A stretch of 64,000 nt of DNA from Candidatus Eiseniibacteriota bacterium. GTDB lineage: Bacteria > Eisenbacteria > RBG-16-71-46. The notes under the pieces are model-generated. The model ran no database searches. It had not been told where the DNA came from and was given only the letters and a program-made list of their open reading frames with translations. The stretch is from positions 2,592,001 through 2,656,000 of the forward strand of contig OY970342.1 in assembly GCA_963717505.1 (NCBI GenBank), in the 5' to 3' direction. Of this stretch, positions 33,425 through 49,104 are shown piece by piece. Every line of letters starts with the position of its first letter. Positions within the stretch are counted from its first letter, which is position 1. The position numbers and the translations under genes are program-made.

Positions 33425-34534
33425 ATGCCCGGAGTCGGGCTCAAGGACGTGAGCAAGGTCTACGCGCGCGGCCAGCGCGCGGTGGACAACATTCGCCTCG
33501 AGATCGCCGACGGCGAGTTCCTGGTGCTGGTCGGGCCCTCCGGCTGTGGCAAGTCCACCGTGCTCCGCATGATCGCCGGACTCGAAGAGGTCTCGCAGGG
33601 CGAGATCCGGATCGGCGAGCGGGTGGTGAACCAAGTGCCGCCCCGCGACCGGGACATCGCGATGGTATTCCAGAACTACGCGCTCTACCCGCACATGAGC
33701 GTGTTCGACAACATGGCGTTCGGCCTCCGTCGCCGGAAGACCCCGGCGCCCGAGGTCGACCGCCGCGTTCGAGAAACCGCGGCGATGCTCGGCCTCGATG
33801 TCTACCTGACGCGGCTGCCGCGCGAGTTGTCGGGCGGCGAGCGCCAGCGGGTCGCACTCGGGCGCGCGATGGTCCGCGATCCCAAGGTGTTTCTGTTCGA
33901 CGAGCCGCTGTCGAACCTGGACGCCAAGCTGCGCGTCCAGATGCGGGCCGAGATCAAGCGCCTCCACCAGCGGGTGCGGGCGACCATGATCTACGTCACC
34001 CACGATCAGGTCGAGGCGATGACGCTCGGCGACCGGATTGCGGTCATGCGCAAGGGGCTGCTGCAGCAGGTCGCCGATCCATTCACGCTCTACGACCGTC
34101 CCGCGAACCAGTTCGTGGCCGGCTTCATCGGCAGCCCGCCGATCAACTTTTTCGCCGCGCAGGTGAGCCCGGCCGGCGCGCCGCTCTCGCTACAGGCGGG
34201 GGAGGTGCGTTTCGACCTGCCGCAGGCGCTGGCCGAGCGACTCGAGTCGGTGCGCGGTACTGCGGTCACGGTTGGGGTTCGTCCCGAGGACCTCTCGCTG
34301 GTGGCGGCCCCGGGCTCGGGATCGCTCGAGGCGCGCGTGGAAGTCCGCGAGCCGCTGGGGAACGAAGTCCTGGTTCACTGGACCTCGGCGGTGGGCGAAC
34401 TGCTGTCGCGCGTGCCGGGTCACGGAGCGCCGGCGGTGGGCGAGCGCGCGCGTCTGCACGTGGCGCCCGATCGCCTGCACTTCTTCGATCCCAGGAGCGA
34501 ACTCGCGCTCGACCCGGTGGCCGCGGCCGTTTAG
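33425..34534 (+). CDS. Carbohydrate ABC transporter ATPase (MalK/UgpC/MsmX type) with TOBE domain
   Basis: GPSGCGKST, AMVFQNYALYPHM, LSGGERQRVALGR, DEPLSNLDAKLR, VTHDQVEAMT, GVRPED. Confidence 0.93.
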   Translation: MPGVGLKDVSKVYARGQRAVDNIRLEIADGEFLVLVGPSGCGKSTVLRMIAGLEEVSQGEIRIGERVVNQVPPRDRDIAMVFQNYALYPHMSVFDNMAFGLRRRKTPAPEVDRRVRETAAMLGLDVYLTRLPRELSGGERQRVALGRAMVRDPKVFLFDEPLSNLDAKLRVQMRAEIKRLHQRVRATMIYVTHDQVEAMTLGDRIAVMRKGLLQQVADPFTLYDRPANQFVAGFIGSPPINFFAAQVSPAGAPLSLQAGEVRFDLPQALAERLESVRGTAVTVGVRPEDLSLVAAPGSGSLEARVEVREPLGNEVLVHWTSAVGELLSRVPGHGAPAVGERARLHVAPDRLHFFDPRSELALDPVAAAV

Positions 34535-36048: not shown

Positions 36049-37869
36049 CTAGTTCTCCCGATTCAAGAGCACCATCTGCCACACCCAAACGTCTCCGGTA
36101 GCTCCGGCCGGTAGCTTGCCAAGCACATCCGCCAGTCGTCCGGGGGGTGACGATTCAGTGCTCAGGGCTTCCATCATGCCGCCGATCCCGCGCAGGGACG
36201 CCATGGCCTCGGGGCTCACCGAGTGGTAGCTGATGGGGGCGTCGACCTGTGTCTTGGGGAACGACTCGATTTCGTCCTCGAGTTCGACCAGCGGTTTACG
36301 CGAGGCCAGCACGATCACGGTCTCGGAGCCACCCACACTGGTCACCTGCCAGTTCACAGCCCGGTCCCGGTAGTGGCCGGGCAGGCGGTGAACCACCCCC
36401 GGAGGGAGCGGGTTCACCGGGGTGAGGTCAGGGGCGGGGTAGAGCACGAACACTTGGCCCTGCTGGTCTTCGCTGAGGATGTAGGCATGTATGCGCTCGG
36501 GGCACTGGAGCTCGAGGTAGAGGCCGTCGCCGGGAGCGACGGGATCGCTCTGGCCCAATAGGGTCGCCGTCCCCGCGCGCACACGGTGCAACGTGGCCGT
36601 GGCCACGATGGGTGCCGTCGGCGAACCGGCGGGAACACGTTCGGAGTCTTCGATCCGCCGGCTCGCATCCTCCGCGTCGCGCGCGGTACCGGGAGCAACG
36701 GGTTGGCTCGGGCTCACAGACATCCCGCCATCGCTGAGGGTCGTCGGATGCCATGGGTTCATGCGAACCCCGACGACCGCCAGAGCGATGAGCACAATGG
36801 CGGTCAACGCCAGTAGCAGCGCGTTGGGGCGTGACGACGGGGGGCTGATCGCCTGGACCAGGGCCCGCTCGAGGGCTCCCGCACTCGAGTTGCGGCGATC
36901 CGGGTCTGGATCCATGGCCTGCTCGATCACGCGGACCAGCCCCGTTGGCAGCTCCGGGCGCGCGTCGCGGAGTAGGACCTCCGGGCCGCGTTCAACCTTG
37001 CTCAAGAGGTCGGCCGCCGGGGTGGTCGTATGCGGGTATCGCCCCGTAAGCAACCGATAGAGCAAGACGCCGAGGCTATACAGGTCCGATCGGGTATCGC
37101 CGCGATCGCCGCGCAAGCGCTCCGGCGGCATGGCCGCCAAGGTTCCAAATGCCGCGAGTGGCTCGGGACCCTGCGCCTCGCTGCTGGCGCCAAAATCCAT
37201 CAGGACGATACGGCCGCCGTTCTCACGCATCACGTTGTTGGTCGTCACGTCGCCGTGGACGATGCCCGCGGCATGCAGGGCGGCCAGCGCGCGGCACAGA
37301 TCGACGCCGATGCCTGCCGCTTCATTGGCGCTCAGGGGGCCGCGTTCCCCGAGCATCTGCTCCAGAGTCTGCCCGGCAATTCGATCGCTCCAGATACCGA
37401 TTCGGCCCTCGAAACGCCCCACGCCATGAACGATCACAACATTGGGGTGCCGCACTCGCGCCAGCCGTTGGGCTTCGTCGAGGAAGCGATCCTCGGCGAA
37501 GAGGGGCAGACGGCGGTCTCGCCGAAGCACTTTGAGGGCGACCTCGCGTTTGAGACCGGTGTCGAACGCTACGTACACGTCGGCGTAACTTCCCTGGCCG
37601 AGAACCCCGCGGATCTGCAGCGGCCCCCAGGCTCCGCTCGGGAATGCCGCGAGGATCTCCGGCGGGAGGGGCCCGATCTCGCCCCCGGCTGCCGGATTCG
37701 GCCCAACCTCCTGAACGCGATAGGCAGCGGCGATCTGCTCCACGACCCGCAGCTCTTCCACCACTTCCGCGGGTTCTGTCCGCGCCCGCTCGGACTGCCA
37801 ATCCACGGGCGTGCCGTCGGCCACCGCCCCACACAGCTCATCGAGGTGATCCTCATTGCGCTCGTTCAC
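36049..37869 (-). CDS. Membrane Ser/Thr protein kinase with C-terminal DUF4384-like ectodomain
   Basis: LGQGSYADVY, VALKVL, HPNVV, HGDVTTNN, LMDFG, SDLYSLGV, TM ALLLALTAIVLIALAVVGV, then GDGLYLEL...HAYIL...VLYP...LPG...GSETVIVLAS. Confidence 0.9.
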   Translation of the reverse strand: MNERNEDHLDELCGAVADGTPVDWQSERARTEPAEVVEELRVVEQIAAAYRVQEVGPNPAAGGEIGPLPPEILAAFPSGAWGPLQIRGVLGQGSYADVYVAFDTGLKREVALKVLRRDRRLPLFAEDRFLDEAQRLARVRHPNVVIVHGVGRFEGRIGIWSDRIAGQTLEQMLGERGPLSANEAAGIGVDLCRALAALHAAGIVHGDVTTNNVMRENGGRIVLMDFGASSEAQGPEPLAAFGTLAAMPPERLRGDRGDTRSDLYSLGVLLYRLLTGRYPHTTTPAADLLSKVERGPEVLLRDARPELPTGLVRVIEQAMDPDPDRRNSSAGALERALVQAISPPSSRPNALLLALTAIVLIALAVVGVRMNPWHPTTLSDGGMSVSPSQPVAPGTARDAEDASRRIEDSERVPAGSPTAPIVATATLHRVRAGTATLLGQSDPVAPGDGLYLELQCPERIHAYILSEDQQGQVFVLYPAPDLTPVNPLPPGVVHRLPGHYRDRAVNWQVTSVGGSETVIVLASRKPLVELEDEIESFPKTQVDAPISYHSVSPEAMASLRGIGGMMEALSTESSPPGRLADVLGKLPAGATGDVWVWQMVLLNREN

Positions 37870-38446
37870 GCTTCATCTCCTCGGCGAGTTTCTTGAGGGA
37901 TCGCTTGATGAGCTGGCGCGCCGCCTCGGGTGAGATCATGTTCGTGGCGCGGGCGATGTCGTCATAGGTGAGGCCGTACTCGATGCGCAAGACGATTGCT
38001 TCTTGGGCATGTCGGGGCAGACCCGCCAGGGCGCTTTCGTAGCGCTCCAGTGCCTCATGACCGATCGCATCCTCCAGCGGCGAGGGTTGCGGATCGGAGA
38101 GATTGTCATTCAACGCCTCCTGCGCCGGGCGGCGCGAGTGCTTGCGGGCTTGGTCTCGAACCTCGTTGAGCAAGATCTGGCGCAGGTACGCGAGAAAGGA
38201 ACCATCGCCTCGGTAATCAAAGGTCGCTATGTGCTCAAACGCCTTCTTGAGGGTGACCTGGACGAGATCATCGGTGTCGCCGATGCCTCGGGCACATCTG
38301 GGCAGTCGGCCATGAGCCAGACGCCGCAAGATCGGAAGGAATCGGGCGAAAAGGCGGTCGCGGGCGCGCGGGTCGCCTGAGCGAAACAGTGTCAAGAGAT
38401 CGGCGGTGGATTCATCCGGGAGCGGCTCGCCCCGTAACTCGGCCAT
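37853..38446 (-). CDS. ECF sigma factor
   Basis: ARDRLFARFLPILRRLA, DTDDLVQ, FLAYLRQILLNEVRD, region 4 AIVLRIEYGLTYDDIA...EAARQLIKRSL. Start could be 38488 or 38494. Confidence 0.92.
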   Translation of the reverse strand: MAELRGEPLPDESTADLLTLFRSGDPRARDRLFARFLPILRRLAHGRLPRCARGIGDTDDLVQVTLKKAFEHIATFDYRGDGSFLAYLRQILLNEVRDQARKHSRRPAQEALNDNLSDPQPSPLEDAIGHEALERYESALAGLPRHAQEAIVLRIEYGLTYDDIARATNMISPEAARQLIKRSLKKLAEEMKRERAQ

Positions 38447-38534
38447 GGGGTCCTCGTTTGCCAGACTCGACGTGTTGCTAGCGGACATTCCCAAACAGAT
38501 CGTCGTTCCGGCGAGTGTTACGATTCAGAGCAAC

Positions 38535-41500
38535 TCACTCCCATCTTCCGGCACCGACGAATGCAGCCCAGTAGAACGGGTGAGTGCTTTCGCCCTGCCG
38601 GCGATGCTCTTTGAGCAAGCTCCGGCTCGCCTGCTGTATGGCGGCGGCCGTTCCCTTGTGCTGCTCAATTCTGGCCTCGTAGAGCGACTTCATCCATGCT
38701 CTCGTCGCCTCGTCTTCCACCGACCACAAGCTCATGATCACGGTTTTCGCTCCGGCCACCCGGAACGCACGGCGAAGGCCGAACACGCCCTCGCCGGCCC
38801 TGACGACCCCCACCCCGGTTTCGCAAGCCGACAGCACCGCCCACTCCGTTCCGGACAGGTCGAGCGTCGCGATCTCCTCGGCAGTGAGGATCCCGTCTTC
38901 ATTGTGATCTTCTGTCCGGCCATGCTGATTCGCCCCGGCGAGCACAAGGCCAGAGAGCTGCAGCGGATTCTCGCCCATCTGCGCCGATGGCTTAGGCTCG
39001 GTCGAGTCGCCTCCCGATACAAGCCCTCCAATTCCCCGAGGTGTGCGATCGAACGCAGACGGGCACTCGGAGCCCAGGAAGAAGCCGTGAGTTGCCAAGT
39101 GTAGAACACGTTGGTGGGGTGCACCGGACTTGAACGCCGGCTCGCTCGCTTGAGCGCCCACAAGTTCACGGCCGCTGCCACCGCTCTTCCTCCAAAGTCC
39201 CGCAACTTCTTGGACTTCACGGGCGGTCCCAGGAAGCCTTGGCCAGTGTGACTCGGTGAACGCCCTGCAACCCGAGCGACTTCCTCGATAGCTGGCCCCG
39301 CCAGCTGGATCATCACGAGACGTCTCGGCGACGGCTGTCGCCGGTACGGTCGTCTCAACCACATCGTAGTCGGGGTCGCCAACCACCAGGAGGCCGTTCT
39401 GGTTCAAGATGCTCGGGCCGCGAATCACATCGCGCTCGGCGCCCAAATAGTGGAGGACCGGGTCCTGTTCCAGCAGATAGCGGGTATCCGAGGTCGGTAG
39501 GGCGGCAAAGCCGACGAGGTTCAGGGCTCCGTCGGGAACCAACAACGCCAACTTCGCCGCGACGAACGGCGCGATCGGATCCCAGACCTTGCGCTTCAAG
39601 GACCCGGCCACCGAGCGATAGCGGGATTCGGCATGTGCCCGGGGATCAGGCGAGGGCGGTTTCCCAGCCTGGCTGCGCCATTCGGAGACCAGCGAGTCGA
39701 TGGTGGCTGCATCACCCAAGCGGACCAGAATCCCATGCCCGGTCCCGCCGCGAAGTACGAACGCCAGGTAGCGAGGCTCGGCCTCGGCATTGGGTAGGCG
39801 CGGCTGTTGATGAAGGTAGCGAGCATACGCGACGAGAACGCTGCCTTTGGGCAGCGCTGCTCGCACTTCGCTGAGCCCCGCGTGTTCTACGGCCCGCGCC
39901 TCGCGAAAAGATGCGCTGCTGGCGGCCATGCGTTCTTCGGCCACTTCGCACTCGGCACTCGCACTACGCAGGGTCGCTCGATAGCGTTCGGGATTCTCGC
40001 CCCCGATGCCCCGCACCATCAGATTTGCGACCCGCTGGCGCGAGGAAGCCCAAGTGGCTGCCAACGACACCAAAGCAGTGTCGCCGGCCTCGACAACCAC
40101 ACGGTGACGAGCCGCCATCTCGTCCAGCACCGCCGCTCGAGAGCGGATTACGGCTTCCCAAGCACGATCGTTGGCCGACGGATCCGACGAACCAAACTCG
40201 GAAGCCAGCGTCAGGATGAGGTCCAATCCCGCATCCCGGGCGCAATAGTTGAGAGCCTGGCGCTCAGGCAAACTGCGGCTCGCCAGATGCAGGTGCTGGT
40301 TGATAATTCGATTTCCCTCGAGCGCCGTGTCGAACGCCGCTGCCGACTGCCCAAGGGCCGCGAGTGCGAATGCCAAGCTAATCAAACTCTTCCCGACGTC
40401 GGGATGGTCTAGCCCAAGAGCCTTCCTACGTATCGCGGCCGATCGTTCAAACAGCGTCTCGGCCGAATCCGCGCTCCCAGTTCTCCATTGCACCGTGCCG
40501 ACGTTGTCGAGGTAGGGCGGCAGCAGGGCGTGATCCGGGCCGAAGGCCGTTTCGGCGATGGCCAGGGCACGATCGTAGAGCGCTCGGACTGCAACAAAGT
40601 CTCCGGTCCTCTCCAGGAGATAGCCAAGGCTGGTGGCGCACTCGGCAACGTCCGGGTGATTGGCCCCCAGCACGCGATCGCGAATCGCCAGGGCGCGCTC
40701 CAGATCGGAACGGGCGCCTGAAAACTCGCCGAGAGAACCCAGCAAGTTACCGCGGTTGTTGAGCGAGGATGCCAGCTGTGGATGGTCCGAGCCGAGCGTC
40801 GCTTCCTCGATGACAATGGCGCGGTCGTAGAGAGGTCGGGCCTCCTCCAGATCACCCATCTCCTGAAGCTGCAACGCCAGGTTGTGAAGGCTCTCCGCCA
40901 CCAAAGGGTGATCCGGTCCCAGCTGTTTTTCGCGGATCGCCAGAGCGCGTCCGCTCAACCTACGGGCTTCAGCGACCTCCCCCATGGAACGGAGCACATT
41001 GGCCAGATTGTTGGACGATGCCCCTTCCCGCGGATGGTCTGGCCCGAGCGCCGTCCGGTGGATCTCGATCGCTCGTTCATAGAGAACCCTCGCTTCAGGG
41101 TATTCCGCCATGTCCTGATGGATCAGTGCCAGATTGTGAAGACTGACACCTACGTCTGCATGATTCGGACCGAGCGAACCTTCTCGGATGGTCAGTGCCC
41201 GCTGATGACACTCTCGGGCCTCGGCAAACTCACCGCGTGCGCGACGTATGTTCCCGAGCACCGACAAGCTCCTGGCGAGGTCTGGGTGGCTGGGTCCTTG
41301 AATCCGTTGCCTGAGAGCGACCCCCTGCTCGGCGGATTCAATCGCGGCTGGCTGGTTGGACTTGCCTTCGCGCATGAGCGCTTCAGCCCGCAGGTCGAGG
41401 AGCCCCGCACGCTGAAGCGAGTCGATTGTCGTTGGTGGCCCAGGTTCGAGGAGTGCGCGAGCTCGGCTCTCGGCGTCCGAGTATTTCCCCAGGTTCATCA

Positions 41501-41660
41501 GCTCGCGGATCTTGGCGATTTCGGTATCGCCATGATTCGTGACCGTTTGTTGCGCTCTTGCGGTGGTGTCAGACGAAACCGAGGCCCAAAGCGGAGGGAT
41601 GCTGGGAAACCCCGCCAAGAGCGCAGGGATCAGGGCGTATCGCGGCCAAACTCGGTTCAT
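38535..41660 (-). CDS. Secreted TPR-repeat CHAT (caspase-like) protease 1
   Basis: Signal peptide, about 8 LGPxHP-type TPRs, catalytic HLATHG and VLSACETG, GEGVFGLRRAF, HPFYWAAF. Confidence 0.93.
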   Translation of the reverse strand: MNRVWPRYALIPALLAGFPSIPPLWASVSSDTTARAQQTVTNHGDTEIAKIRELMNLGKYSDAESRARALLEPGPPTTIDSLQRAGLLDLRAEALMREGKSNQPAAIESAEQGVALRQRIQGPSHPDLARSLSVLGNIRRARGEFAEARECHQRALTIREGSLGPNHADVGVSLHNLALIHQDMAEYPEARVLYERAIEIHRTALGPDHPREGASSNNLANVLRSMGEVAEARRLSGRALAIREKQLGPDHPLVAESLHNLALQLQEMGDLEEARPLYDRAIVIEEATLGSDHPQLASSLNNRGNLLGSLGEFSGARSDLERALAIRDRVLGANHPDVAECATSLGYLLERTGDFVAVRALYDRALAIAETAFGPDHALLPPYLDNVGTVQWRTGSADSAETLFERSAAIRRKALGLDHPDVGKSLISLAFALAALGQSAAAFDTALEGNRIINQHLHLASRSLPERQALNYCARDAGLDLILTLASEFGSSDPSANDRAWEAVIRSRAAVLDEMAARHRVVVEAGDTALVSLAATWASSRQRVANLMVRGIGGENPERYRATLRSASAECEVAEERMAASSASFREARAVEHAGLSEVRAALPKGSVLVAYARYLHQQPRLPNAEAEPRYLAFVLRGGTGHGILVRLGDAATIDSLVSEWRSQAGKPPSPDPRAHAESRYRSVAGSLKRKVWDPIAPFVAAKLALLVPDGALNLVGFAALPTSDTRYLLEQDPVLHYLGAERDVIRGPSILNQNGLLVVGDPDYDVVETTVPATAVAETSRDDPAGGASYRGSRSGCRAFTESHWPRLPGTAREVQEVAGLWRKSGGSGRELVGAQASEPAFKSGAPHQRVLHLATHGFFLGSECPSAFDRTPRGIGGLVSGGDSTEPKPSAQMGENPLQLSGLVLAGANQHGRTEDHNEDGILTAEEIATLDLSGTEWAVLSACETGVGVVRAGEGVFGLRRAFRVAGAKTVIMSLWSVEDEATRAWMKSLYEARIEQHKGTAAAIQQASRSLLKEHRRQGESTHPFYWAAFVGAGRWE

Positions 41661-41788
41661 ACGCTGATGAGCACTCGCGCGTCACTGAAGTCGTGGGGTG
41701 AGGACGCATTAGTCTAGCACTGGAAGGGCCGCGCTCAACCCTCGTGCTCCTTGGCCTCTCGCGAGGCCGAAACAACCCGGGGATTCGC

Positions 41789-44700
41789 CTAGCGCCAGTC
41801 CCCCACGGCTACGAATCCACCCCAGACGAACGGATGTGTGCTGGCGCCGGTGCGGCGCAGATCCTGTAGGACTTTGAGTTGCGCTTGGTTCACGGACTCT
41901 GCCGTGCCCAAACCGCGGACGAGTCGCGCCTCGTAGAGGGCCGTCATCCAGGCCCTCGTGGCTTCGTCGTCGACAGCCCACAGGCTCATGATCGTGGTGC
42001 GGGCGCCGGCGACCCGCAGCGCGCGTCGAAGTCCGACCACGCCTTCCTGCCTGCGAATCGTCCCGAGACCGGTCTCGCATGCCGAGAGAACCGCCCACTC
42101 GACGCTCGAGAGGTCGAGCGCGGCGATCTCGTCGGCCGTGAGGATGCCGTCGTCGTTGTTGAGTGGGGCGTCCTCTCGGTGGTTGGCGCCGGCCATCGCC
42201 AGGCCGGCGAGGAGCAGGGGGCTCTCGTTCGCGGGAGGTGGTTTGAGCACGCTATCGGCCGCGACCATGCCGCCAATTCCCCGATCCCCTGGCGGTTGGT
42301 GCCGGCAGGTGCCGTCGACGAAGAAGCCGTGGGTGGCCAGGTGGAGCACGCGGCAGCCCGGAGCCCGCCGTTTGAATTCGGTCTCGGTTGCACGCGCCCC
42401 GATCAGCACGTAGGCGGGTTCTTCTCGAATCGTATCAGCCCCGGTGGCCGCGTCGGTCCAGCTTTGCGAATGGCTCCGCCACAATCGGCCGATGGACTGG
42501 ACCTCCTGAGATGCGGCCGGCAGGGACGCAAAGCGGATGTCCCTGAACTCGCCGCAACTCGAGCGCGGGCCGCGGTAGACGGGATCGGAATCCGCCGAGG
42601 GCGGCGTTTCTGCATCGGCAACGCGCAGCCCGAGCTCGGCGTCGAAGTCCGGTGCCCCGACCGCGAGCAGCCCTCGGCCCCAGGAAGCAATCGTGACCCC
42701 GAGCGCCAGATCTCGTTCGGCAGAGAGCAGGTGAGGAATCGGGGCGCGCTCGACCAGATACTCCGATTTCCCTACCGGCAGCGTCGCCAGATTGACCAAG
42801 TGGAGCGTGCCATCCGGAACCACGAGAACTCGATCCGCGCCCGCCAATCGCGCTGCGATCGGATCCCAAATCGCCGCCCGCAGCCGCGCAGCTTCCCGAC
42901 GATACTCACGCTCCCGCTCCGGCTCCGAGTGCATTGAAGCGGGACGTTGAACGAGAGCCTGCCAGCCAAGGACCAGCGAATCGACCATGCCCGACCCGCC
43001 GAGGGCAATCAGCTCGGGATGATCCGAATGCGCCCCGAGGACGAATGCCACGTAGCGTGCGGGCAGCGTGTCCCTGGGCGGCAAGCCATAGGCGTACGGT
43101 TCGAGTCGAGCGTACGCGACCAGCGCGGTTCGTGGCGGCAGGGCGGAACCCAGGTCCGCGAATCCGAACCTGCTTCGCTCCTGCACGGTGCGCCACCGCC
43201 CGCTGTGCGCAGCCAGGTCGCGCTCGGCTTGGTCGCGTTCGCGCTGCGCCGCCTGCCAGCGATTCAGGAACTGTGCGGGATCGTCGCCCGGAACCCCGCG
43301 GACCTCCAGGTTCGAGAGCCGCCGGACGGTGGCCTCGAAGCGCTCGAGATGGTTGCGTGCGTCAGCATCGGCCGCGACCGCCAGCATGCCGCGCCGTGCC
43401 GCGAGGACGTCGAGAATGATCGCGCGCGATCGGATCACGGCGTCCCACGCCGCCTCCCGGATCTCGGCATCCGACGACAACGGCCCGCATGCCAGTTGCA
43501 GCAGGAGGTTCAAGCCCTCGCCACGCAGGCTGTTCCAGCTCGTGGCCAACAGGAAGCTCTGGCGCTCCGACATTGCCTGTACGTTCCGCCTCAGATGTTC
43601 ACGGCGAATGGCATCGGCGCGCGCGGCGGTGGCGAATGCCTCCCGAGGCCTACCCATTCTCAAGTGATGGTCGCTCAGCCAGCGACGCGCCATCGCGGTC
43701 TCTGTGTGATCAGGACCGCGAACTCCTTCGAAGACCTGGGCACATTGCTCGAACGTTGCGGTCGCGTCGCGAACGTGCCCCGTCACCTCGTATATCCGTG
43801 CGAGCAAGTACAGTCCCCATCCCAGATCCGAACTCATCGGGCCGCGGAGTTGTCGCCACAGATTGTTGGACTGCAGCACTAGGCGCAGCGCCTCAGCGTG
43901 GTCCCCGCGGTAGTTGCGAACTTCCGCGAGCAGCCCCAAACCTCGGGCCGCCCGGTAGCTGGTGGGCCCCGCGGCGTTGATGAGAATTTCGGCGGCTTCC
44001 TCCATCAGGCGGTAGCGGTTCTCGATCCCTGGAGTCACGGTCGACAATCGCGACAAGGACTCGCCGATGGCTCCTGAACCAGGGGGCAGGCGTCTGCGTC
44101 GGATGTGCAGCGACCGCTGGTAGGCGGCCAGGGCCCGGCCAGCCTCGCCCGAGGCGGCGTAGTGCTGACCCAGCATGTCCAGGCCCAGCGCCAGCAACAG
44201 GTCATCAGCCGGCAGCACCGCCTCCATGATCGAGATCGACTCCTCGAGCATGGCTCGAGCCTCGGCCTCGTTGCCCAAACGGGAGACCAAGTCGCCGAGG
44301 TCGAGCAGGACCTTGGCGACGTCGCGATGGTTCCTTCCGACGACGCTCCTGGCCATCGCAAGATTGCGCTCGAACACCGGCACTGCGCGTTCGAAGTCGC
44401 CAGCCCAGACGTAATTGACGCCCAGCGCGTTCAGCGTTCGCGCGGTGAGGAGGTTCTCGCCCAGCGCGCGTTCGTGAATTGCGAGCGCCCGCTCGATGAG
44501 CTGACGGGCCTCTTCGAACCGGAACTGACTGCGGATCGCGATCGCATAGGCGACCAGCCGTTCGGCGAGAATCGGATGCTCCGGCCCCAACGCCGTCTCG
44601 GTGAGCGCGATCGCCCGCCGATACAGGGAATCGTCGAGACGTCCCTGGGTTGTGCTCATCATTGCCCGTCCGAACATGCTCTCGGCCAGATCGGGATGGC

Positions 44701-45322
44701 CGGGCGCGAGTCCGCGTTCCCGAATGGCTGCTGCCCGCCGAATCAGGGAATCCGCGGCGGCGTCCTGAAAGAGGTCGTATTGCTGAAGTCCCAGCCAGTG
44801 CATTGAGCGGGCGACCTCCAGGTGGTCGTCCCCCAGTGTTCGCCGGCGAATCTCGAGTGATCGGGTGAAGGCCGCGGCCGCTACCGAATCTCGGCGGCGG
44901 TCCCCCAGCAGCCGCTCGGTCCCGGTGCGCACGGCCAGGCCGACCACGAACCAGCTGCTGGCAACGTCCGGATGATCTGGACCCAGCGCGCGTTCGCGAA
45001 TCGCGACCGAACGCTGAGCCGCTTCGAGCGCGCGTGGGTGCCAGAAGCGACCGCCCATGACCATGGCCTCGGCAATCAACTCGAGGGCACGAGCAGCGCG
45101 CAGGGAGTCCGGAGGCGAAGACGACTCTGCCGCGACTGCGATCGACGACGCCAAAGACTCGGCCTTGGCATACTGGCCGCGATCGATCAGCGTGCGGGCG
45201 ACGGTGAACTCAGACGGGGCGGGCGCGCCCCGAGTGGAGCCCGCGACGCCGGCCCGCGGGAGGAACAACGCGGCGAGAAAGAGGAGTACGGCGAAGCGCC
45301 GTCGCGGCCTACAGGGGAGCAT
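41789..45322 (-). CDS. Secreted TPR-repeat CHAT (caspase-like) protease 2
   Basis: Signal peptide, LGPDHP-type TPRs, HLATHG, VLSACETG, HPFVWGGF. Paralog of the adjacent CHAT gene. Confidence 0.93.
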   Translation of the reverse strand: MLPCRPRRRFAVLLFLAALFLPRAGVAGSTRGAPAPSEFTVARTLIDRGQYAKAESLASSIAVAAESSSPPDSLRAARALELIAEAMVMGGRFWHPRALEAAQRSVAIRERALGPDHPDVASSWFVVGLAVRTGTERLLGDRRRDSVAAAAFTRSLEIRRRTLGDDHLEVARSMHWLGLQQYDLFQDAAADSLIRRAAAIRERGLAPGHPDLAESMFGRAMMSTTQGRLDDSLYRRAIALTETALGPEHPILAERLVAYAIAIRSQFRFEEARQLIERALAIHERALGENLLTARTLNALGVNYVWAGDFERAVPVFERNLAMARSVVGRNHRDVAKVLLDLGDLVSRLGNEAEARAMLEESISIMEAVLPADDLLLALGLDMLGQHYAASGEAGRALAAYQRSLHIRRRRLPPGSGAIGESLSRLSTVTPGIENRYRLMEEAAEILINAAGPTSYRAARGLGLLAEVRNYRGDHAEALRLVLQSNNLWRQLRGPMSSDLGWGLYLLARIYEVTGHVRDATATFEQCAQVFEGVRGPDHTETAMARRWLSDHHLRMGRPREAFATAARADAIRREHLRRNVQAMSERQSFLLATSWNSLRGEGLNLLLQLACGPLSSDAEIREAAWDAVIRSRAIILDVLAARRGMLAVAADADARNHLERFEATVRRLSNLEVRGVPGDDPAQFLNRWQAAQRERDQAERDLAAHSGRWRTVQERSRFGFADLGSALPPRTALVAYARLEPYAYGLPPRDTLPARYVAFVLGAHSDHPELIALGGSGMVDSLVLGWQALVQRPASMHSEPEREREYRREAARLRAAIWDPIAARLAGADRVLVVPDGTLHLVNLATLPVGKSEYLVERAPIPHLLSAERDLALGVTIASWGRGLLAVGAPDFDAELGLRVADAETPPSADSDPVYRGPRSSCGEFRDIRFASLPAASQEVQSIGRLWRSHSQSWTDAATGADTIREEPAYVLIGARATETEFKRRAPGCRVLHLATHGFFVDGTCRHQPPGDRGIGGMVAADSVLKPPPANESPLLLAGLAMAGANHREDAPLNNDDGILTADEIAALDLSSVEWAVLSACETGLGTIRRQEGVVGLRRALRVAGARTTIMSLWAVDDEATRAWMTALYEARLVRGLGTAESVNQAQLKVLQDLRRTGASTHPFVWGGFVAVGDWR

Positions 45323-45445: not shown

Positions 45446-46399
45446 CTAGCGATAGCGCAGCTTGAGCCCTCCCCAAGTGGTTGCAGGGGCCGCTGCGGAC
45501 GACTCCGTCGGATTCGCACCGGACGCTGCCTTCTTGAGACTGGTGCCGACTGCGGTCGTTCCCGATGAGCCGCCGCCGCCCAACGGGACCGCGGCCGTGT
45601 GCCACTCGAACCTCGAGACGACGTTGATGTTGTAGGTCACATCGAGCGAGAAGCCAAACGCAGACACGCCACCGGTGAAGCGGATCGTATGCTGGCCCCG
45701 GCGTAGCGGCGGCAGCATGATCCAGTAGCCGTCGGAGGCAGCGTTCTGTTCGGTGCCGGTAACGCAGGGATCCCATGCGCTCAGGCTGGGGTCCCCCGTA
45801 AACGTGATCGGTCCCGACGCACCCCGATAGCGAAACGGATCGCTCACGGCCTTGCCGTCGATCTCCACCGACAACTGATCGACCTGGTCGATGATGTCTT
45901 TGGCGGACTGAGTCAGGAATTCGTCTAGGTCCTGTCCGGGTGCGGGTTCGAACCCGAACTCGGGCGGGCAAGGGTAATCGGCGAGATAGTTGAGAACCGG
46001 AAAGAAAATGACCTTGCCGAAGGGAATCGTGCAGCTGCGCGTCACGACGCTGCCACTGGAGCCGGCGAGGAACCAGACCGGTCCCGACTGTTCGACGCTG
46101 CACGAAGCGCCGGTCTCGTCCAAGATCGGGTTCGATCCGAACGGAATCGACATCGCCCAGCGCCACCACTCCGCTCCCCATTCCCCGTAGGACTTCCCGA
46201 ACAGTCGGAGCCAGGGCGGGATCACAATGGCACCGTGGTCATGACCTCCGTCGGTGACCACCGACACCTGTTCGTCGATCGGGTTGGCTTCGGGCAACTC
46301 CAACGGATCCGCGAACAGGGGGAGCGCGGTGATCGAGGATCCGATCCACAGAGCCACGATCAACGCCGACTTGCGAACAATCCTGGTCCAATCGGTCAT
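45446..46399 (-). CDS. Secreted hypothetical protein with C-terminal TWGxxKxxYR tail
   Basis: Signal peptide, core YGEWGAEWWRWAMSIP...GPVWFLAG...SDGYWIMLPPL, Ser/Thr/Ala linker, ends TTWGGLKLRYR. RBS GGAG. Confidence 0.75.
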   Translation of the reverse strand: MTDWTRIVRKSALIVALWIGSSITALPLFADPLELPEANPIDEQVSVVTDGGHDHGAIVIPPWLRLFGKSYGEWGAEWWRWAMSIPFGSNPILDETGASCSVEQSGPVWFLAGSSGSVVTRSCTIPFGKVIFFPVLNYLADYPCPPEFGFEPAPGQDLDEFLTQSAKDIIDQVDQLSVEIDGKAVSDPFRYRGASGPITFTGDPSLSAWDPCVTGTEQNAASDGYWIMLPPLRRGQHTIRFTGGVSAFGFSLDVTYNINVVSRFEWHTAAVPLGGGGSSGTTAVGTSLKKAASGANPTESSAAAPATTWGGLKLRYR

Positions 46400-46815
46400 G
46401 GTGGATCTCCTTGCCTGCGGGGCCGCGACCACCCGTACGGCGGAAGTCGTGGCAGGGCGCGGCCCGCGGCCCTGCCCACTCTGGTCTCCCGCTGGTTCTT
46501 GTGAGGCGCCTTCATCGCTCCGGGACAGGCCTCGCCTCAAGCTCCGAGGGGTGGTTCCGGCCATCCTGGAAGGGTGCGGCCCCTGGGGGAGAAACGAGGA
46601 CGCATCGCAGTCCGGTCGTCAATTTCGCGGACAGCCACGCCCCATCCACCATCGCCGGGAGGACCGGGGTCGCATGATGCAAGTCACGTCGTGGTACCCG
46701 GGCGTGGGGATCATGGTCTGGTCTCCGCGCCGGCCTCGATATCGCGACCGACCTGGGTGGATCGGACGTTCCTCCTTGAGGGAGTGGACGAGTCCACAGT
46801 CCCGGAGGCAACGTC

Positions 46816-49104
46816 ATGAGATCTTCTGCGATCCTGCTTGTCCTTCTTCAATTCACGCTGGTTCAGACTCCGAGTTGGTCGGCGGAGACGCGGCCGGTGG
46901 TTCCGACCTCCGCTGAGGACGGCCAATGGCGGGCCCTGGGAGGACCCTCGGGGCGCTATGGCCACGCGGCCGTGTATGACCCGATGCGCGGCCGGCTGAT
47001 CATCTTCGGCGGCGAAGACAACGCAATGCTCCGCCAGGACGTCTGGACGCTGTCCCTCACAGGGACTCCGGAGTGGACGTCGCTCGTCGCCACGGGGACG
47101 CCGCCCTCGCCACGACGCGGACACTCGATGATCTACGACCCGGTGCGCGACCGGGTCATCGTGTTCGGGGGCTGGGATGGCGCCCGGCGCAACGATGTCT
47201 GGGAGCTGGCGCTTTCACCGACCCCGTCGTGGACCCTGCTCACACCTACCGGGGTCATATCCGCGCGCGATGGTCACAGCGCCATCTACGACCCGGTGCG
47301 CGATCGTATGATCGTCTTCGGCGGAGCGATATCGGCGACAGTCCTGCGCAATGATGTCGTGGCGCTGGCGCTCTCCGGGACACCCACTTGGTCGACGCTG
47401 ACCACTGGAGGTCCACAGCCTGCCGCTCGAACCGACCACAGCGTGGTCTACGATCCGGGCCGTGATCGCATGGTGATCTTCGGGGGCGCGGGGGCCACCA
47501 GCCTGCTCAGTGACGCTCGTGGACTTTCCCTTTCCGGAACCCCTACCTGGGGTGTAATCGTCGCGGGTACACCTCCCTCCGCGCGACGCGGGCACGCCGC
47601 CATCTTTGATCCGATTCGCGACCGGATGGTCGTGGCTTGCGGAAACGACGGCTCACCCCGCGACGATCTGTGGGAGCTGGCGTTCACCGGTTCTCCCGCC
47701 TGGCACGCTTTGAGTCCTACGGGGCTGACTGCCGAGCGGTCGGAACACACGGCGACCTACGATGCGGCTGGAGATCGCATGGTGACCTTCGGCGGAGATC
47801 TCGGAGCCGGTGCCCCAGCCTATTATGGCCTCGTCCACGAGCTCACCCTCGGGACGCCGGCCTGGAATTTCGTGACCGGTTGGGTCGATCTGCCCGGGAG
47901 GCACCATCACACGGCGATCCGCGATCCGATCCGCGACCGGATATTGGTCTACGGAGGGGATGACAACATCACCCTCTTCAATGAAGTCCTGGCGGCATCG
48001 CTGGCCGGAAGCCTGGATTGGAGCTTTATTGGCGATCAGGGGCCGGCACGAAGTGGGCATGTGATGGTCTACGATCCGGTCCGCGACCGGATGCTCGTGT
48101 TTGGCGGCTATGGCGAGGGGAACTACACCAACGACGTCTGGGTGATGTCACTCGGTGTGGTCCCAAGCTGGTCTCTGCTCGGCCCGATCGGAGCGCCACC
48201 GGATCCGCGCGTTTATCACTCGGCGATCTATGACCCCGTGCGTGACCGGGTCATCGTCTATGGCGGGTTGACGTCGCAGGGGATCGACCTTGGGGATCTG
48301 TGGGAGCTTTCGTTGGCGGGGACTCCAATGTGGAGCCCGATCCTGGCGTCGGGCACACCGCCTTCGGCTCGCGCGAATGCGACGGTTGTCTATGATCCCG
48401 AGGGGGACCGGATGCTCCTGTTCGGCGGAGAAGATTCTGCACCGACGAACGACGTCTGGGAGCTCTCGCTCTCTGGAAGCCCCGCATGGAGTGCACTCTC
48501 CCCGACAGGCGGGCCACCTGCTGCTCGAAGCCGCCACACTGCGTTCTACGACGCCGTTCGCAAACGGATGGTGGTGTTCGGTGGATTGAACACTGGGCAA
48601 GTGTTCAACGACGTTTGGAGCCTCTCCTTGTCCGGGCCCCTGAGCTGGACTCCAATGATCCCTGACGGGACCAAGCCCCCAGGTCGATATGGCCATGCGG
48701 CAATCTACGATGTGGTTCGCAATCGCATGTTGGTTGTCGGTGGAGCGTTCAACGGCCATGTCGATCTTGGGGACACCTGGGAGCTGGTATGGCCACCGCT
48801 GGTAGGTGTCGAGGGCGGGGCTCGGGAAGGCGGCCGTATGGTTCTGGTGCATCCCAACCCCTTCCGAACCGATGTTGCGTTCGAATTCGAGCTGCCGTCC
48901 CGGACGAGGTTGGTGCTCGACGTCTACGACCTCAACGGCCGTAGGGTGAAGCGCATCGTCGATGCCGTTGTCGAGGCCGGCCGGCACCCGTTCACCTGGC
49001 GGGGGGACGACGAGTCGGGGCGGTCCATGGGGCCTGGCGTCTATTTCGTACGCGCGGTAACGCCGGGATGGACCTCCGCTCAAAGGATCGTGCGGGTGGA
49101 GTAG
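46816..49104 (+). CDS. Secreted Kelch-repeat protein with C-terminal FlgD-Ig domain
   Basis: About 12 repeats of R.GH.A.YDP.RDR..VFGG...NDVW.L.L.G.P.W, C-terminal HPNPFRT...WRGDDESG...PGVYFVR. RBS GGAGG. Confidence 0.9.
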   Translation: MRSSAILLVLLQFTLVQTPSWSAETRPVVPTSAEDGQWRALGGPSGRYGHAAVYDPMRGRLIIFGGEDNAMLRQDVWTLSLTGTPEWTSLVATGTPPSPRRGHSMIYDPVRDRVIVFGGWDGARRNDVWELALSPTPSWTLLTPTGVISARDGHSAIYDPVRDRMIVFGGAISATVLRNDVVALALSGTPTWSTLTTGGPQPAARTDHSVVYDPGRDRMVIFGGAGATSLLSDARGLSLSGTPTWGVIVAGTPPSARRGHAAIFDPIRDRMVVACGNDGSPRDDLWELAFTGSPAWHALSPTGLTAERSEHTATYDAAGDRMVTFGGDLGAGAPAYYGLVHELTLGTPAWNFVTGWVDLPGRHHHTAIRDPIRDRILVYGGDDNITLFNEVLAASLAGSLDWSFIGDQGPARSGHVMVYDPVRDRMLVFGGYGEGNYTNDVWVMSLGVVPSWSLLGPIGAPPDPRVYHSAIYDPVRDRVIVYGGLTSQGIDLGDLWELSLAGTPMWSPILASGTPPSARANATVVYDPEGDRMLLFGGEDSAPTNDVWELSLSGSPAWSALSPTGGPPAARSRHTAFYDAVRKRMVVFGGLNTGQVFNDVWSLSLSGPLSWTPMIPDGTKPPGRYGHAAIYDVVRNRMLVVGGAFNGHVDLGDTWELVWPPLVGVEGGAREGGRMVLVHPNPFRTDVAFEFELPSRTRLVLDVYDLNGRRVKRIVDAVVEAGRHPFTWRGDDESGRSMGPGVYFVRAVTPGWTSAQRIVRVE

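Follow-up and report, generated by a model that had tools for sequence, protein, structure and literature searches.

In the type III-E Craspase systems (Csx29, Csx30, Csx31 and RpoE/CASP-sigma), the protease Csx29, which combines tetratricopeptide repeats (TPRs) with a CHAT domain, cuts Csx30, a protein that binds a sigma factor of the extracytoplasmic function (ECF) type, within a flexible linker, and the C-terminal domain of some Csx30 proteins belongs to DUF4384, according to the available text of the report (bioRxiv 10.1101/2022.08.17.504292). A second TPR-CHAT protein, DdvA of Myxococcus xanthus, is described in the available sections of PMC11506125 as a periplasmic anti-sigma factor that is proposed to cleave itself in trans in a flexible linker. 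Other ECF sigma factors are controlled by Hanks-type kinases, namely those of ECF43 (EcfP-PknT, EcfK-PknS) and of groups ECF59-62, 217, 267 and 283 (PMC13147305, PMC7826278, available text), and in Haliangium ochraceum a SAVED-CHAT/PCaspase cluster comes with the sigma factor PCc-sigma and the kinase PCk, for which cleavage of the kinase has been hypothesised (bioRxiv 10.1101/2023.06.23.546230, available text). Here we describe a locus from a 64,000-nucleotide stretch of the genome of a Candidatus Eiseniibacteriota bacterium (assembly GCA_963717505.1, contig OY970342.1, positions 2,592,001 to 2,656,000), the whole of which is called the window below. Four genes at positions 36049-45322 of the window encode a receptor Ser/Thr kinase with a DUF4384 domain, an ECF sigma factor and two TPR-CHAT proteases, CHAT1 and CHAT2. 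Sigma factor, kinase and protease form a conserved module, and the kinase ectodomain and the proteases share a short motif, RGIGG(M/L) in the window, whose variants are matched between the partners of a module. The explanation that we favour, still tentatively, is that the motif is a recognition site common to both proteins and cut by the CHAT protease of the module.

The locus is similar to Craspase in pairing the gene of a TPR-CHAT protease with that of an ECF-type sigma factor, and among solved structures Csx29 chains came closest to the fold of CHAT1 (E about 1e-11). Unlike in Craspase, the leaders of the proteases are signal-peptide-like, the DUF4384 protein is a receptor kinase and not an anti-sigma-like binder, and the protease itself bears a copy of the motif of its partner. 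Neither Cas7-11 nor Csx30 or Csx31 was found by Pfam in the four genes and the flanking open reading frames (ORFs) of 30.6-49.1 kb, and the defence models of PADLOC-DB gave generic kinase-domain matches and one weak TPR match, with none for the sigma factor or CHAT2. The likeness to DdvA-DdvS is an apparently extracytoplasmic TPR-CHAT protein coupled to an ECF sigma factor. However, the CHAT protein is here separate and secreted and its membrane partner is a kinase, whereas the CHAT domain of DdvA is fused to the anti-sigma factor through a transmembrane (TM) helix. CHAT1 and CHAT2 were without an anti-sigma domain in Pfam, their TPRs following directly after a short hydrophobic leader, and a shared motif is not described for DdvA in the available sections of PMC11506125.

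As in the kinase-controlled ECF groups (PMC13147305, PMC7826278, available text), the sigma gene adjoins or overlaps a gene for a receptor Ser/Thr kinase that crosses the membrane once and has a variable outer domain, and no anti-sigma gene was seen. ECF43 factors have lost the acidic DxxD of region 2.2 and have an uncharged QTTA consensus with a phospho-acceptor Thr (PMC13147305, available text), whereas the module sigma factor, which is also co-encoded with a Hanks-type kinase, has kept an acidic D-T-x-D. The term CHAT is absent from the main text, as available, of PMC13147305 and PMC7826278, the supplements of which may list genomic context by group. The Haliangium cluster resembles the module in bringing together genes for CHAT and caspase-like proteases, a sigma factor and a Ser/Thr kinase, but it is cytoplasmic, driven by cyclic oligoadenylates, linked to CRISPR and without DUF4384, and the available text of its description mentions no shared motif. 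What sets the module apart from the known systems is that the protease is a secreted protein of its own, that the DUF4384 partner is a receptor kinase, that there is no CRISPR link and that the motif is matched in enzyme and partner. With separase/securin and the caspase zymogens it has in common a clan CD protease whose chain or inhibitor carries a substrate-like sequence; in caspase zymogens such a sequence is held by the inter-subunit linker. Unlike in separase and caspases, the substrate-like copy lies here between the catalytic His and Cys, and the system is bacterial and, as it seems, extracytoplasmic. No description of the sigma/kinase/CHAT triad or of the motif was found in the literature searched, the scope of which did not extend to supplements that perhaps list CHAT or DUF4384 neighbours.

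The conservation of the module was seen from the kinase side. Relatives of the kinase ectodomain (aa 372-606) occur in 24 of 61 related genomes, the genome of the window included, and the loci compared below are the 42 obtained by taking at most 20 kb around 40 matches in 22 related genomes (one genome left out) together with the two loci of the window's own genome. The sigma gene adjoins the kinase gene in 39 of these 42 loci and a CHAT gene is present in 30, while in three more a TPR ORF is cut by the contig end. The CHAT gene was most often downstream on the same strand (23), and otherwise upstream on the same strand (5) or on the opposite strand (4). The same triad was met in named metagenome-assembled genomes (MAGs) of Candidatus Eisenbacteria, Vicinamibacterales/Vicinamibacteria, Blastocatellia and other Acidobacteriota, groups that also gave the best named CHAT matches and near which the genome of the window probably belongs; a single kinase ectodomain used as the query of this wider locus search returned no relative, and the scan was made with the CHAT alignment instead. 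At the locus itself all four genes lie on the minus strand, in agreement with the preliminary description of this DNA, which had reported four co-oriented genes and an overlap of 17 nt between sigma factor and kinase. The same genome has a paralogous module (G000:C1:217673-228368) with CHAT, ECF sigma and DUF4384 kinase genes, in which the CHAT loop reads RGLGGVEP and the kinase has RGVGGVEE in a shifted frame at the equivalent place. The paralogous kinase is broken by at least two frame changes and could be a pseudogene or a product of assembly errors (the genome is a single contig with 86.7% completeness).

Clustering of the other ORFs of the 42 loci did not reveal a fourth module gene, as it gave just shadow-frame artefacts and one family, present in 22 loci. 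This neighbour family was rejected since its members are united by a C-terminal FlgD_ig-like domain alone, and with 126 copies of the domain across the genome of the window, or roughly one every 33 kb, its occurrence in 22 of 42 loci is explained by the base rate. The domain looks like a lineage-wide secretion or sorting tag, and it is also found at the C-terminus of a Kelch beta-propeller protein at 46816-49104 (plus strand) of the window. Sigma-kinase fusions were rejected as well: in the long proteins of the kinase family, the stretch from the TM helix to DUF4384 contains TPRs and no sigma domain. TPRs in this position were observed in P0026, P0047, P0149, P0080 and P0136 of the representative library, and those of P0026, P0047 and P0149 are of the TPR_12/TPR_10 type, as in the CHAT proteins.

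In the kinase the motif RGIGGM (aa 560-565; 36175-36192, minus strand) is placed in a loop between the DUF4384 sandwich and the last beta-strand. The CHAT1 copy, RGIGGL (aa 875-880; 39021-39038, minus strand), is found 17 residues past the catalytic His, between the motifs HLATHG and SACETG, and the CHAT2 copy, RGIGGM (aa 1014-1019; 42266-42283, minus strand), also lies in the His-Cys loop between HLATHG and SACETG. All three positions, as well as the placement between the catalytic His and Cys in both proteases, are exactly those given in the preliminary description. Over 11 positions, the kinase motif is closer to CHAT2 (7 identical) than to CHAT1 (5 identical). A fourth RGIGG, which had been missed, is present in CHAT1 in a loop of the helical middle domain (aa 550-555; 39996-40013, minus strand), but the site is a semi-conserved L-x-V-R-G and the copy looks coincidental because the full motif occurs there in just one of 47 homologues. 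When all six frames of the window are considered there are four RGIGG, every one inside the kinase, CHAT1 or CHAT2, and the 20,864 stop-to-stop ORFs of 100 aa or more in the 4.16-Mb genome contain 32 RGIGG and six RGIGG[ML], three of the six being at this locus. To judge from the sequence comparisons, conservation and co-variation at homologous loci make a better argument against chance than such genome counts.

The kinases at homologous loci do carry the motif, for which the preliminary description had asked: its Arg is invariant (38 of 38), the next Gly is at least 90% conserved and the consensus is L-R-G-[VI]-G-G-[VLM]. A kinase profile search of 1.84 billion cluster representatives gave 813 at E<=1e-30, and among the best 150 of these, inspected over their last 100 residues, RG[ILVM]GG was present in 109 and a loose form in 147, the remaining three having RGIEG, RGTGG and RGVGD. 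The motif was situated 45-54 residues before the C-terminus of the kinase in 125 of the 147. On the CHAT side the motif aligns at a single site, in an insert after the catalytic His, with the Arg 15-18 residues past that His in 30 of 30 pairs.

The motif is general neither to DUF4384 nor to CHAT proteins. It had been suggested that an equal frequency of it in DUF4384 proteins without a CHAT neighbour would speak against a role in the module, and it followed the domain in none of ten non-kinase DUF4384 proteins, which were the third DUF4384 protein of the window's own genome and nine from five related genomes. A separate secreted DUF4384 family, with a tail rich in Cys and aromatic residues (Y-P-R-Y-L-C-x-D-C-H) and without kinase or motif, was observed in the own genome (G000:C1:487225-488913) and in four of five related genomes examined (L180, L181, L183, L185). 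In the genome of the window, the three CHAT proteins of the two kinase modules carry RG[IL]GG in the loop, and the five other CHAT proteins, none of which adjoins such a kinase, are without it. A CHAT protein outside the window, an open frame of 605 aa at G000:C1:2589178-2590992, about 1 kb before the start of the window, has neither the motif nor TPRs. Among 80 named CHAT loci, seven had both the strict motif and the kinase, 60 had neither, and five had the kinase without the strict motif; of the last, one is frameshifted in the loop, three are divergent but matched with their kinases and one has RGVGR.

The two copies of the motif co-vary, as the preliminary description had proposed to check. 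In 31 linked kinase-CHAT pairs, the two partners agreed on average at 4.55 of the eight positions that follow the Arg, whereas shuffled pairs agreed at 3.21±0.17, and no value as high was obtained in 20000 shuffles. The co-variation peaks at +2 (23 identities observed, 11.1 expected) and +5 (17 versus 7.4) and extends over +6 to +8, with none at -1 and -2. Where a genome contains several modules, the mean was 4.65 for cognate pairs (n=23) and 2.82 for non-cognate ones (n=38). Rare variants are common to partners (RSIGGL/RSIGGL, RGAG/RGAG as RGAG(A/E)I, RGVGELADA/RGVGELADA and RGM/RGM), and by hand count rare kinase residues at +1 to +4 were matched in the partner in four of 16 cases, with 0.65 expected. 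Partners in the named MAGs of other lineages have RAVGGL/RAVGGL, RSVGGL/RSIGGL, LRSIQLRKAQPT/TRGIHLRQRRPT and TRKLTQG/TRNLTHG. Modules within one genome can differ in their variants, and one genome carries RGVT/RGVS, RGVGE/RGVGE and RGM/RGM while another has RSIGGL/RSIGGL, RGAG/RGAG and RGIGGL/RGIGGV. Positions with the same residue used the same codon in 94 of 223 cases (42%) for cognate and in 2447 of 5257 (46.5%) for non-cognate pairs, the kinase and CHAT1 of the window have no codon in common across the motif, and the flanks of the motif are not homologous, with a nucleotide identity of 0.23-0.58. Gene conversion or a DNA-level element is unlikely because codon identity is not in excess and the flanking DNA is unrelated, and selection appears to act at the protein level.

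Structure prediction suggests that both copies are accessible. The AlphaFold2 (AF2) model of the ectodomain, made with the family alignment, has a confident beta-sandwich core (predicted local distance difference test, pLDDT, >90), whereas the motif loop (ectodomain residues about 171-200) has a block-mean pLDDT of 39-54 and is followed by a short helix and the last strand (block-mean pLDDT 92), which returns to the sandwich. The model of CHAT1 aa 462-1041 (pLDDT 84.8, predicted template modelling score 0.86) places the motif inside a segment of pLDDT<50, residues 407-435 of the 580-aa model. Burial of the motif had been named as an observation that would count against the proposal; both copies are instead in low-pLDDT loops flanked by confident structure and are therefore predicted to be exposed and flexible, with their ends anchored in folded domains. 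A predicted complex of CHAT1 aa 462-1041 with ectodomain aa 50-235 had interface scores (ipSAE) of 0.01 and 0.01, without controls, and is counted neither way. No solved structure resembled the fold of the ectodomain model at E<=1e-3; the weak matches were to Ig-like sandwiches, among them RhoGDI and the carbohydrate-binding domain of Wzt.

The CHAT1 model was matched by Foldseek to Csx29 of Craspase (2.4e-11), separase (1e-10), DdvA (PDB 8rot; 8.8e-9) and gingipain R (1.2e-5), and weakly to SAVED-CHAT (1.8e-3). Sequence identity between CHAT1 and Csx29 is 13-15%, and a profile of the module CHAT alignment found no match among PDB sequences. The catalytic motifs are HLATHG at aa 854-859 (39084-39101) and SACETG at aa 944-949 (38814-38831) in CHAT1, and HLATHG at aa 994-999 (42326-42343) and SACETG at aa 1080-1085 (42068-42085) in CHAT2, all on the minus strand, and all 47 module CHATs compared have kept the catalytic Cys and both His. 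CHAT1 and CHAT2 are thus CHAT proteases by profile and by their His and Cys, and CHAT1 also by its modelled fold.

The kinase ectodomain and the CHAT proteins are probably both extracytoplasmic, as judged from their predicted topology. The kinase has a single hydrophobic helix, at aa 350-368 (36766-36822, minus strand; ALLLALTAIVLIALAVVGV, a hydrophobic stretch recognised by eye in the translation), between the kinase domain and DUF4384 (aa 445-526; 36292-36537, minus strand; Pfam PF14326, 40 bits versus a cut-off of 27), and the DUF4384 part should therefore be outside the membrane. Signal-peptide-like N-termini were found by a hydrophobicity rule in 26 of 29 full-length module CHATs. Both proteases of the window had been described as having signal peptides, which holds clearly for CHAT2 but not for CHAT1, whose proline-rich hydrophobic N-terminus is weaker and falls below the threshold. 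A pair of Cys residues, Cys798 and Cys866 of CHAT1 (positions 337 and 405 of alignment A4), is present as a pair in 36 of 47 module CHATs, wholly absent in 10 and represented by a single Cys in one, and this joint presence or absence fits a disulfide and an oxidising compartment. The second Cys is eight residues past the catalytic His and its partner about 70 residues upstream, so that the pair brackets the start of the loop, and it is likely from this pattern that they form a disulfide tethering the motif loop beside the catalytic His.

In the explanation that we favour, R-G-[IV]-G-G-[LMV]-x-x-x would be a short linear motif that is read by a part of the module, the likeliest candidate being the CHAT protease with its substrate cleft. 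The reader must be module-encoded because paralogous modules carry different matched variants and no fourth gene is conserved, and the CHAT cleft is the simplest reader because one copy is within reach of the catalytic His; that this cleft reads the motif and that the motif is cut is what we infer. The copy in the protease, in a flexible insert of about 45 residues just past the catalytic His, would be a site of self- or cross-processing under zymogen-type control, and the two CHAT proteins of this window would permit a two-step cascade. In the kinase, a cut in the flexible loop would nick or unfold the ectodomain and alter the activity of the kinase, and with it that of the sigma factor whose gene overlaps the kinase gene. 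The two copies would drift together because protease and substrate must fit the same cleft, and different matched versions would insulate the paralogous modules of one genome. The interpretation given in the preliminary description, a cleavage or docking site relaying a signal from the proteases through the kinase to the sigma factor, is partly supported, by the co-conservation, co-variation, exposure and specificity of the motif; the mechanism as such is a proposal, and its wording of a relayed TPR-sensed signal is speculation. A fuller form of our explanation is an extracytoplasmic caspase-like cascade with an address code, where each CHAT zymogen would bear, beside its catalytic His, a copy of the cleavage motif of its cognate kinase, and a TPR-sensed signal would lead to the processing of the zymogens at that copy (initiator and executioner), to the clipping of DUF4384 at the matched one and to the switching on of kinase and ECF sigma factor; this is possible but rather doubtful.

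Several points weigh against cleavage at a shared site or limit how far it can be taken. Nine of the 42 kinase loci had no CHAT gene in the fetched stretch, although several of these reach contig ends and unlinked partners exist: in five genomes with orphan kinases, motif-bearing CHAT genes were located on other contigs, and one orphan-kinase genome has two kinases and exactly two motif-bearing CHATs elsewhere, with RGVGGMAPA common to one pair. The motif was also found without a kinase within 10 kb at eight of the 80 named CHAT loci (several on short contigs). The shuffle test overstates the co-variation because related loci are not independent, and independent contrasts on the kinase tree number 2-5 per position, with no test at p<0.05 (p 0.125 to 1). 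There were five contrasting pairs at +2 (3.7 in the same direction, 0 opposite, median p 0.125), four at +5 (2.4 in the same direction), three at +4 (1.2 in the same direction) and two at +1, and the contrasts almost never point in the opposite direction. The residue before the Arg differs by partner, being Leu in 26 of 31 kinases and mostly Thr in the CHAT proteins, which is odd if the Arg is P1, because clan CD enzymes usually read the non-prime side. To our knowledge there is no precedent for cutting between the catalytic His and Cys.

The position of the cut itself may be either of two. Gingipain R and metacaspases cut after Arg. Separase does so in an unstructured motif, but P1 varies among the known CHAT enzymes, being Arg in separase and Met or Leu in craspases, for which the site is quoted as VGM|KK (all from the available sections of PMC11506125). 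The scissile bond could follow either the invariant Arg or the hydrophobic residue at +5, which is preceded by Gly as in the craspase site; the latter would put the strongly co-varying +2 and +5 at P4 and P1.

On the output side, phosphorylation dependence of the sigma factor is not evident, because region 2.2 reads D/E-T-x-D-[LIVM]-[VAI]-Q in 39 of 39 module sigma factors (DTDDLVQ in the window), and for the same reason the module sigma factor is not a typical ECF43. The invariant Thr after the first acidic residue is a possible phospho-acceptor. The kinase of the window (HGDVTTNN) is without the catalytic-loop Lys and has Thr instead, and the catalytic loops of 29 matched family members are mostly non-RD (HGD in 20, HRD in 8 and HCD in 1). 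By its sequence the window's kinase is of the Hanks type, with the catalytic Asp, Asn and DFG retained, and its activity is likely but not certain, because 20 of 29 members have Gly in place of the HRD Arg and the window's kinase has Thr in place of the catalytic-loop Lys. Signalling from kinase to sigma factor would be consistent with the overlap of the genes, the lack of an anti-sigma gene and the precedent in other ECF groups. A search for a promoter motif by spaced k-mer pairs upstream of 39 sigma genes gave GC-rich noise only.

The alternative that survives best is that the motif is bound but not cut, which we consider unlikely but well short of negligible. As a tether or an inhibitor, the kinase tail would sit in the CHAT cleft or at an exosite, the loop copy of the protease would be an autoinhibitory mimic, and the signal would pass by binding and release without proteolysis of the kinase. 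Co-variation, loop exposure and module-specific matching suit such a shared binding site equally well as a cleavage site, and a co-varying stretch of about nine residues is the normal footprint of an extended bound peptide. There are parallels for the inhibition too, since separase is inhibited by securin lying bound in the active site and the dyad of DdvA is misaligned at rest (PMC11506125, available sections). On the other hand, none of the 47 module CHATs has lost the catalytic dyad, which argues that something is cut, and the module has no other conserved candidate substrate.

It is improbable that the motif is read on the kinase side or paired homotypically, that is, that DUF4384 binds its own tail and the CHAT loop mimics it, or that the copies contact each other in register. 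The co-variation is of the identity type, with the same residue in both partners, as stacking or mimicry predicts, and DUF4384 may be a protease-docking domain because fusions of it to protease domains are said to be frequent (bioRxiv 10.1101/2022.08.17.504292, available text). However, the AF2 ectodomain leaves the motif undocked on the sandwich, with the block-mean pLDDT of 39-54 given above, and the co-varying positions +2, +5, +7 and +8 do not follow beta-strand alternation. Amyloid signalling motifs are common to adjacent genes of nucleotide-binding leucine-rich repeat (NLR) proteins and their effectors, and they are about 20-25 residues long and protein-terminal, unlike the present motif, which has about nine residues, is rich in Gly and is internal in both proteins. 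The motif does not qualify as amyloid signalling of the BASS/RHIM-like kind, and no NB-ARC or NACHT was found by Pfam in the four genes.

A reader from outside the module, such as a housekeeping protease, a sortase-like enzyme or a chaperone that recognises both copies, is less probable still. Both proteins appear extracytoplasmic, and several processing enzymes use Gly-Gly motifs, but the paralogous modules of one genome differ in their variant and are matched inside each, where a single reader would impose one form; moreover, no fourth gene is conserved, and no TM segment follows the GG, so that the motif is not a GlyGly-CTERM-type signal. That the motif is without function, a result of chance, gene conversion or a DNA-level element, is hardly credible, since the scanning of very many windows will sometimes yield a hexapeptide common to two unrelated proteins but here the homologous site is conserved in 38 of 38 kinases and across CHAT loops, rare variants are matched, and there is no excess of codon identity (42% versus 46.5%) and no homology of the flanks.

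The genes of the locus have the following layout, all on the minus strand. The kinase (606 aa; 36049-37869) consists of a cytoplasmic kinase domain (Pkinase, aa 87-334, 3.4e-35, 122 bits), one TM helix, the predicted extracytoplasmic DUF4384 beta-sandwich and a C-terminal tail. The sigma gene (213 aa; 37853-38494), the 3' end of which shares 17 nt with the start of the kinase gene, was matched by the Pfam models Sigma70_r2, r4_2 and ECF and has only regions 2 and 4 of sigma-70; its product belongs to the ECF superfamily by NCBIfam TIGR02937 (83.5 bits versus a cut-off of 42.9). CHAT1 (1041 aa; 38535-41660) has an N-terminal hydrophobic leader, a TPR_12 array matched in eight stretches, a helical middle domain and the CHAT protease domain (PF12770, 685-1038, 1.6e-62, 212 bits versus a cut-off of 24), and CHAT2 (1177 aa; 41789-45322) has a signal-peptide-like N-terminus, a TPR_12 array and the CHAT protease domain (809-1175, 1.9e-59, 201.9 bits versus a cut-off of 24). 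On the same strand, 123 nt upstream of CHAT2, an ORF of 372 aa (45446-46564) has a signal-peptide-like start and no Pfam match, and it was not seen as a conserved module partner at other loci. Downstream of the module are a TonB-dependent receptor with CarboxypepD_reg (30660-33359, plus strand) and a MalK-type ABC ATPase (33425-34534, plus strand), a link of which to the module is not evident.

Protease-gated control of ECF sigma factors is known through anti-sigma factors, for example by site-1/site-2 proteolysis. The module joins protease-gated control, as in Craspase-Csx30 and DdvA, with kinase-gated control, as in ECF43, outside the membrane, and if the cascade set out above is true, a protease-kinase pair replaces the usual proteolysis of an anti-sigma factor and matching of the motif variants prevents cross-talk among as many as four or five paralogous modules per cell. 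The motif also offers a lead in the sequence of a kind seldom available for bacterial proteases: it is short, marks the probable site in the substrate and co-evolves with the enzyme. With 813 cluster representatives at E<=1e-30 the family is of some size, and the finding bears on what the non-CRISPR CHAT proteases of bacteria cut and on the role of DUF4384, which is recurrent beside caspase-like proteases, as well as on how the receptor Ser/Thr kinases of ECF systems are switched and how paralogous modules are insulated from each other.

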